DNA of 63,541 bases, filler included, from Schmidtea nova (taxonomy: Eukaryota), in assembly GCA_044892505.1 (NCBI GenBank). It is 4 parts of one record of this genome, joined end to end, with 100 filler letters (N's around TTAATTAATTAA, not from the genome) between each part and the next. Parts side by side here need not be neighbours in the genome. Positions count along the whole stretch, not along the records: positions 1 to 20,213 come from CM097882.1; 3 more parts are not named here. One strand, 5' to 3'. The translations under genes and the position numbers were made by a program. Below, piece after piece: positions 4,672 through 4,975 of this stretch (positions are counted from its first letter, which is position 1; every line of letters starts with the position of its first letter). Under the pieces are notes generated by a model. That model searched no databases. It saw only the letters and a program-made list of their open reading frames with translations, and was not told where the DNA came from.

Positions 4672-4975
4672 TTTTTTTGCGACAAATTTTTTTTTCAAAA
4701 ATTTTTTTCGCGCCAAATTTTTTTTTTCAAAATTTTTTTTCGCGCCAAACTTTTTTTTCAAAAATTTTTTTCGCGCCAAATTTTTTTTTCAAAATTTTTT
4801 TTCGCGCCAAATTTTTTTTTTTCAAAAATTTTTTTTCGCGCCAAATTTTTTTTTCAAATTTTTTTTTTCACGCCAAATTTTTTTTTTTCAAAAATTTTTT
4901 TCGCGCCAAATTTTTTTTTTTTCAAAAATTTTTTTCGCGCCAAATTTTTTTCAAAAATTTTTTTTTAAGACAAAT
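4672..4975. repeat. About 32-bp tandem repeat built on TTTTCGCGCCAAA separated by T/A tracts (E2F-type sites)
   Basis: 7 perfect cores (about 4709, 4741, 4772, 4803, 4837, 4902, 4936) plus 3 degenerate units. Confidence 0.9.

Follow-up and report, generated by a model that had tools for sequence, protein, structure and literature searches.

A tandem array of E2F-type sites just inside a multicopy Polinton end in Schmidtea nova, probably an E2F docking cluster

The amplification of E2F motifs by MITEs in Brassicaceae was reportedly described by Henaff et al. in 2014. In these plant elements the amplified motifs have been suggested to aid transposition rather than host regulation, and the arrays are bound, apparently without regulating neighbouring genes (available text of PMC7329337). 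The ITR of adenovirus contains the E1A enhancer, whose E2F site is a repressor element for persistence (PMC4726734, in the part available). The E2F consensus is TTSSCGC, and the DREAM tandem elements, E2F/CLE and CDE/CHR, have a 4-nt spacer (PMC5716687, likewise in part). For Polintons or Mavericks, the available portion of PMC8097293 gives (AGT)2 as the end motif and a TIR length of 46–1447 bp, and describes no factor-site arrays in the TIRs; insect Polinton TIRs are also described without such arrays in the accessible text of bioRxiv 2025.02.07.637071. A search of the literature, with Repbase reports, subscription papers and supplements outside its scope, found no description of factor-site arrays in Polinton ends. 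Amplified transposon-borne E2F motifs are therefore already known, and what we have not found described is an E2F array in a Polinton end.

The window, by which we mean the whole stretch of DNA analysed (63,541 nucleotides, filler included), contains such an array in what the initial annotation had called a Polinton terminus. This description is supported by Logan contigs from four runs placed on positions 3900–5437 (three runs share one study, which may be the source of the window, and are not independent; run X5 contributed 35 placed contigs only). A sharp multicopy end is found at 4459, where loose ends with unrelated flanks are seen in 167 contigs from run X1, 92 from X2 and 92 from X3; the comparison passed over the array as a repeat and covers the end outside it. 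The end reads AGTAGG, facing inward, one base off (AGT)2. The left flank (3900–4456, no strand assigned) is part of another repeat, host of the insertion, and other copies of this repeat continue with different sequence past 4456, the two bases between there and the end at 4459 being unassigned. From the end inward, the region is built of a 45-bp core (4459–4503, plus strand) with one AACAAAGAC and one AP-1-type site, a C/G tract, seven palindromic TGAGTCA sites in an 11-bp unit (4569–4655, unstranded), the E2F-type array (4657–4996, unstranded) and six copies of AACAAAGAC in 22–31-bp repeats (5048–5410, plus strand), together with a 28-bp repeat at 5137–5201. Further TGAGTCA sites lie at 4496 and 5010, and the TGAGTCA array forms the main hairpin of the centroid fold. 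We take AP-1/bZIP to be the factor for these sites, and AACAAAGAC is presumably an HMG-box/TCF-like site. The 45-bp core is common to many variants (105 contigs of X1 and 59 of X2 diverge past 4503), and the E2F array is placed about 200–510 bp inside the multicopy end. The AG-type end motif, the core gene set and the length of the terminal region (at least 979 bp, which fits the known range) are shared with Polinton/Maverick TIRs as described in the available part of PMC8097293, from which this element differs in its AGTAGG end, its TBP-like gene and the factor-site arrays themselves. Words resembling those of this end (TGACTCA, AAAGAC and CACGTGCAA) are also seen at positions 1–272 of L183, a pPolB contig of 6.5 kb whose TIRs are complete; in that end the E2F site is absent.

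A closer look at the array, delimited by Tandem Repeats Finder at 4657–4996 (about 10 copies, period 31–34; units of 30–34 bp), shows seven exact copies of the 13-mer TTTTCGCGCCAAA, starting at 4705, 4737, 4768, 4799, 4833, 4898 and 4932, and an eighth with a single mismatch at 4866, all within 4705–4944. For these eight matches with at most one mismatch, 100 dinucleotide shuffles gave 0.22 on average and never more than 2. Each of the seven exact sites fits TTSSCGC on both strands, a sequence match that upholds their designation as E2F sites, and TTTSSCGC is confined to the array, with zero occurrences in the 14-kb gene region. E2F words of this kind are those of the mammalian DHFR promoter and of adenovirus E2. 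The unit count of seven perfect and three degenerate copies holds for the seven; of the other three only the copy at 4866 is a one-mismatch site, and the two edge units, with cores GCGAC and AAGAC, lie outside the consensus and had to be discarded as E2F sites. Each unit consists of a T run (T7-12), one C, an A run (A3-5), a second T run (T7-10) and then CGCGCCAAA, that is, CGCGCC followed by AAA, and homopolymer length is nearly the sole difference among units. This kind of variation favours a neutral minisatellite, in which a chance unit in the A/T-rich end was multiplied by slippage and E2F may bind without benefit to the element. The grading of the edge units into an AAGAC word found elsewhere in the end and the existence of one low-depth contig that jumps over 4503–5271 entirely point the same way; the composition of the end, made of several different site-like arrays, points away from it.

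The sites are spaced 32, 31, 31, 34, 32, 33 and 34 bp apart (mean 32.4 bp, equal to 3.09 turns). At 10.5 bp per turn the first four sites fall within 17 degrees and the eighth has drifted to 223 degrees, with a phase concentration R of 0.43 (0.22 at 10.0 and 0.82 at 10.8 bp per turn), and one third of all periods between 10 and 60 bp differ by no more than 1.5 bp from some whole multiple of 10.5. Strict helical phasing was rejected on this drift and this R value, and from the proposed phased arrangement at three helical turns there remains a loose periodicity of 31–34 bp: the array is loosely periodic, not phased. Its base content is 80% A+T, with 20 tracts and no TpA step in 309 bp. Such a composition, and a position just inside the end as for the adenovirus packaging repeats (available text of PMC4726734), would suit a structural element, where the stiff A/T tracts matter and not the E2F word, be it for open chromatin, melting near an origin, or as a packaging signal that proteins of the element itself recognise. 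However, the tract centres alternate at 11–14.5 and 16.5–20 bp (R 0.25–0.45) and are out of phase for curvature, on which ground a phased A-tract (bent DNA) element was rejected. The adenovirus packaging word, TTTG-N8-CG, has no match in the Polinton end, and a structural role would leave the E2F fit of the GC core in unrelated ends (see below) unexplained. We consider this explanation improbable.

The Polinton genes (pPolB, integrase, packaging ATPase) are located to the right of the array. The polB frame (6757–10932, minus strand) has as best relatives proteins of 61–63% identity that carry PF03175, its own Pfam match being Endonuclease_7 only. Next to it are a frame called as an adenain-type cysteine protease (13239–13607, minus strand), a family that we assume from its GEHW motif; a putative major capsid protein of 406 aa (13688–14908, minus strand), with 151 relatives and a weak DJR-like Pfam match (E 0.005) short of the cut-off; a retroviral-like integrase in two consecutive frames (16285–17331, minus strand; rve, E 2.7e-08); an A32-type packaging ATPase (17953–18576, minus strand; Pox_A32, E 5e-07); and a TBP-like protein of 155 aa (18665–19132, plus strand; Pfam TBP, E 1.3e-13). 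This last protein has 58 matches, about 40 of them close relatives at 37–75% identity, and two relatives are encoded on contigs of 20066 and 22064, the same sizes as contigs with capsid or polB matches. Members of this Polinton clade may thus regularly carry the gene; nothing on a TBP-like Polinton gene was found among literature titles on Polintons and the TATA-binding protein.

Transcription runs outward, every frame between 6757 and 18576 being read from the minus strand and the final two from the plus strand. Because every assembled gene points outward, the array is not a proximal promoter; it is placed downstream of polB, with gaps at 5438–6228 that could conceal a small gene. A placement of the adenovirus E1A-enhancer type, upstream of an inward early gene, was rejected on the orientation of the same ORFs. 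Two promoter-like internal gaps (12540–12720 and 19120–19260) contain CTGATTGG words, which we read as CCAAT-boxes, TATA-like runs and AAAGACAT, and have no E2F site. The presence of two N gaps (5438–5676 and 5827–6228) between the array and polB leaves room for the array to be the end of a different or non-autonomous high-copy element, merely scaffolded beside this Polinton. The divergence of many contigs past the first 45 bp would be in keeping with that, as would the lack within the window of an inverted copy of the end, that is, a right TIR (the right side breaks at the gap at 20214), and of a right-end motif with the 6-bp target-site duplication of a Polinton beside it. This explanation is nevertheless very improbable, since the AGTAG start faces inward at 2.3 kb from the polB stop, and AAAGACAT, found five times in the end and again in the promoter-like gaps at 12669 and 19194, provides a further, weak link.

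Elsewhere in the window, a second Polinton-type polB (60821–63541) is seen in the same orientation with about 75% DNA identity, and a gap has taken its end as well. Two pieces within 27327–28300 (27327–27476 and 28155–28300) resemble Polinton positions 16139–16452. An LTR-retrotransposon-type ORF of 2428 aa (33919–41205, minus strand) has a Monjiviricetes-like fusion glycoprotein domain before its protease, RT, RNase H and integrase, and a hAT-type transposase ORF lies at 47583–49232 (plus strand).

Distant polB relatives comprised 28 viral contigs and 43 genome-bin contigs, whose best segments are mostly 25–38% identical. An E2F-site cluster (more than 2 sites in 400 bp) was present in none of these 71 in the DNA retrieved, a comparison that is weak because only about 5 relatives show a credible end. 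None of the 28 viral polB contigs is among the 12 viral contigs with a loose site pair, and the viral contigs (viral_contigs) contain no exact copy of the site pair, nor did capsid-based searches of them give relatives; the phage collection gave no match. In prokaryote genomes, 27 loci have at least three E2F-like sites (triple-site pattern), one of them with nine TTTTCGCGCCAAAA units, and the word can therefore be amplified without E2F. The end-CRE-E2F and E2F-CHR tandem patterns both gave 0 matches in the prokaryote genomes, none being expected by chance either. Both the similar arrays of bacteria, which lack E2F, and the absence of the array from the 71 relatives speak for the neutral minisatellite introduced above.

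The metagenomes yielded at least 122 stretches with the triple-site pattern, and flanks were examined for 80. Over all matches listed, at least 149 arrays fall into at least 78 families. The Polinton proteins of the window had no match among the metagenome array stretches listed, and the polB profile had one marginal match among those listed (L109, E 0.012). L109 is a very distant pPolB contig (PF03175) with its array near the contig end, 1.5 kb downstream of polB, and with three palindromic TTTGGCGCCAAA sites at 130–230, with TTYRAA at 3–4 nt. Two further loci, L048 (2460–2711) and L063 (1040–1290), have an AGTAGT start in common and unrelated flanks. In both, a TGACGTCA site is placed 13 nt from an E2F/TTYRAA array with the core CCCGCC, not CGCGCC, and a TTYRAA spacing of 3–4 nt, the sites being conserved while the spacers vary. 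The order of modules (end, bZIP site, E2F/CHR array) thus recurs in L048 and L063 with another E2F core, which argues against neutrality. No coding link to Polintons was found for either locus, and their assignment rests on the end motif because both are without a Polinton gene. Of the 56 array loci examined, 7 have AGTAGT or AGTAGG, facing inward, at a distance of up to 300 nt (background, 25 of 528 windows), and among those seven only L048 and L063 have a bZIP site on the end-motif side. The terminal 30 bp matched L048 best of 58 candidates, with 21 versus 19.5 for the next, and homology is not claimed. These two loci agree in a small way with the expectation that the motif would recur in the ends of related elements.

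Similar arrays are also found in other kinds of elements. At 1390–1560 of L007, a CRESS-DNA virus (Viral_Rep), and likewise in L137, five E2F-type sites with TTYRAA at 4–5 nt are embedded in A/T tracts; this array directly adjoins a stem-loop with what we take to be a TAGTATTAC-type nonamer and flanks the CRESS-virus origin. L079 (3240–3327) bears an E2F and TTTGAA array with a 4-nt spacer upstream of LINE-type ORFs. The L041 (at least 47 loci) and L044 (at least 9 loci) families are abundant TTTCCCGCCAAA minisatellites of 27–28 bp, a single sample supplying almost all of them, for which we assume a resemblance to the plant E2F-MITE arrays.

In the Polinton array a TTYRAA (CHR-type) hexamer, a word common by chance in A/T-run DNA, adjoins all eight sites, one per unit. 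An apparent enrichment by letter shuffle (7.6 vs 1.7) was dropped after a stricter run shuffle, under which simply having the hexamer is no enrichment (8 vs 6.1; 57/200). The hexamer is separated from the core by 9–10 nt on one side and by 8–13 nt on the other, not by 4, and the near-constant 9–10 nt may reflect merely two alternating unit types. In combining an E2F word with a minus-strand TTTGAA the units are like the E2F/CLE and CDE/CHR elements, and they are unlike them in the longer spacer, the tandem repetition and the lack of a known transcription start within 200 bp (PMC5716687, in the part available); a canonical DREAM tandem element was rejected on the spacing. Among the matches listed, the distance from TTYRAA to the core is exactly 4 nt in 7 of 52 metagenome array families, where run shuffles give 0.84; none of 500 run shuffles reached seven families, and control hexamers gave 0 and 2. 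This test was run after the arrays had been inspected, the value of 4 being taken from PMC5716687. The families with this spacing include L048, L109 and a LINE. Together with the CRESS array they indicate that DREAM-shaped arrays recur in selfish elements, the Polinton array being an off-spacing relative. Such a spacing in unrelated arrays points to selection on the repeat class and runs counter to the neutral minisatellite, which we regard as unlikely although it keeps a substantial minority share of the probability.

Located at a real end of an element, the feature is best read as a probable docking cluster for E2F. This reading draws on the both-strand consensus match, the absence of TTTSSCGC from the gene region, the end at 4459, the module order of L048 and L063, the arrays of L109, L007 and L079, the 4-nt families and the adenovirus and MITE precedents. 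It is opposed by the 0 of 71 polB relatives, the 27 prokaryote loci, the missing coding link of L048 and L063, the TTYRAA presence that is not enriched, its spacing of 9–10 or 8–13 nt, and the plant arrays, which are bound with no apparent regulation of neighbouring genes. We assign a probability of about 0.5 to the reading of the array as a slippage-amplified E2F/DP docking cluster working as a cell-cycle switch. Slippage would have amplified the unit into a minisatellite in the sub-terminal region of the multicopy end, where it would stand as a module alongside other arrays of host-factor sites (bZIP, E2F and HMG-type in all), kept nucleosome-poor, we suggest, by the stiff A/T tracts. E2F and DREAM are expected in the host as in eukaryotes generally. 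In resting cells, E2F with pocket proteins, possibly as DREAM, would silence the integrated element, and upon S-phase entry free E2F would open its end. As the genes point outward, the switch would act at a distance on internal promoters, across the two gaps that presumably interrupt a single element, or on the protein-primed replication end.

The initial annotation had proposed an S-phase enhancer or origin element analogous to the adenovirus ITR sites. The real end agrees with this, but the array is downstream of polB, and because the adenovirus E1A-enhancer site represses, "S-phase enhancer" would be half of the role of such a site (PMC4726734, available part). Like the adenovirus left end, the locus has E2F sites just inside the end of what would be a linear protein-primed DNA genome, where a host cell-cycle factor can gate a lytic versus a persistent state; adenovirus has one conserved site upstream of an inward early gene, among packaging repeats (same source), unlike the 7–8 tandem sites found here downstream of outward genes in an integrated element. 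With the Brassicaceae MITEs it shares transposon-borne amplified E2F motifs and, unlike these non-coding plant elements (PMC7329337, in part), it is a self-synthesizing element with a putative capsid gene, and its array has a different core variant and a hexamer of CHR type.

The array may bear on how endogenous Polintons are woken or silenced, their TIRs having been regarded chiefly as ends for replication and integration. Through a 340-bp non-coding fragment, the host-factor cassette would allow a direct test of cell-cycle control. If the array is neutral, it warns that motif-like minisatellites arise easily. More tentatively, and with rather doubtful odds, Polinton ends in several host lineages may have independently built a bZIP plus tandem E2F/DREAM cassette as a cell-cycle switch between latency and activity. 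Such cassettes would belong to a broader group of E2F-CHR minisatellites that selfish elements carry (Polintons, a CRESS virus, a LINE), and multicopy ends would spread dense clusters of E2F sites across the genome of the host. If the array is present in most copies of the end, the element would seed many host E2F clusters, as the Brassicaceae MITEs do.
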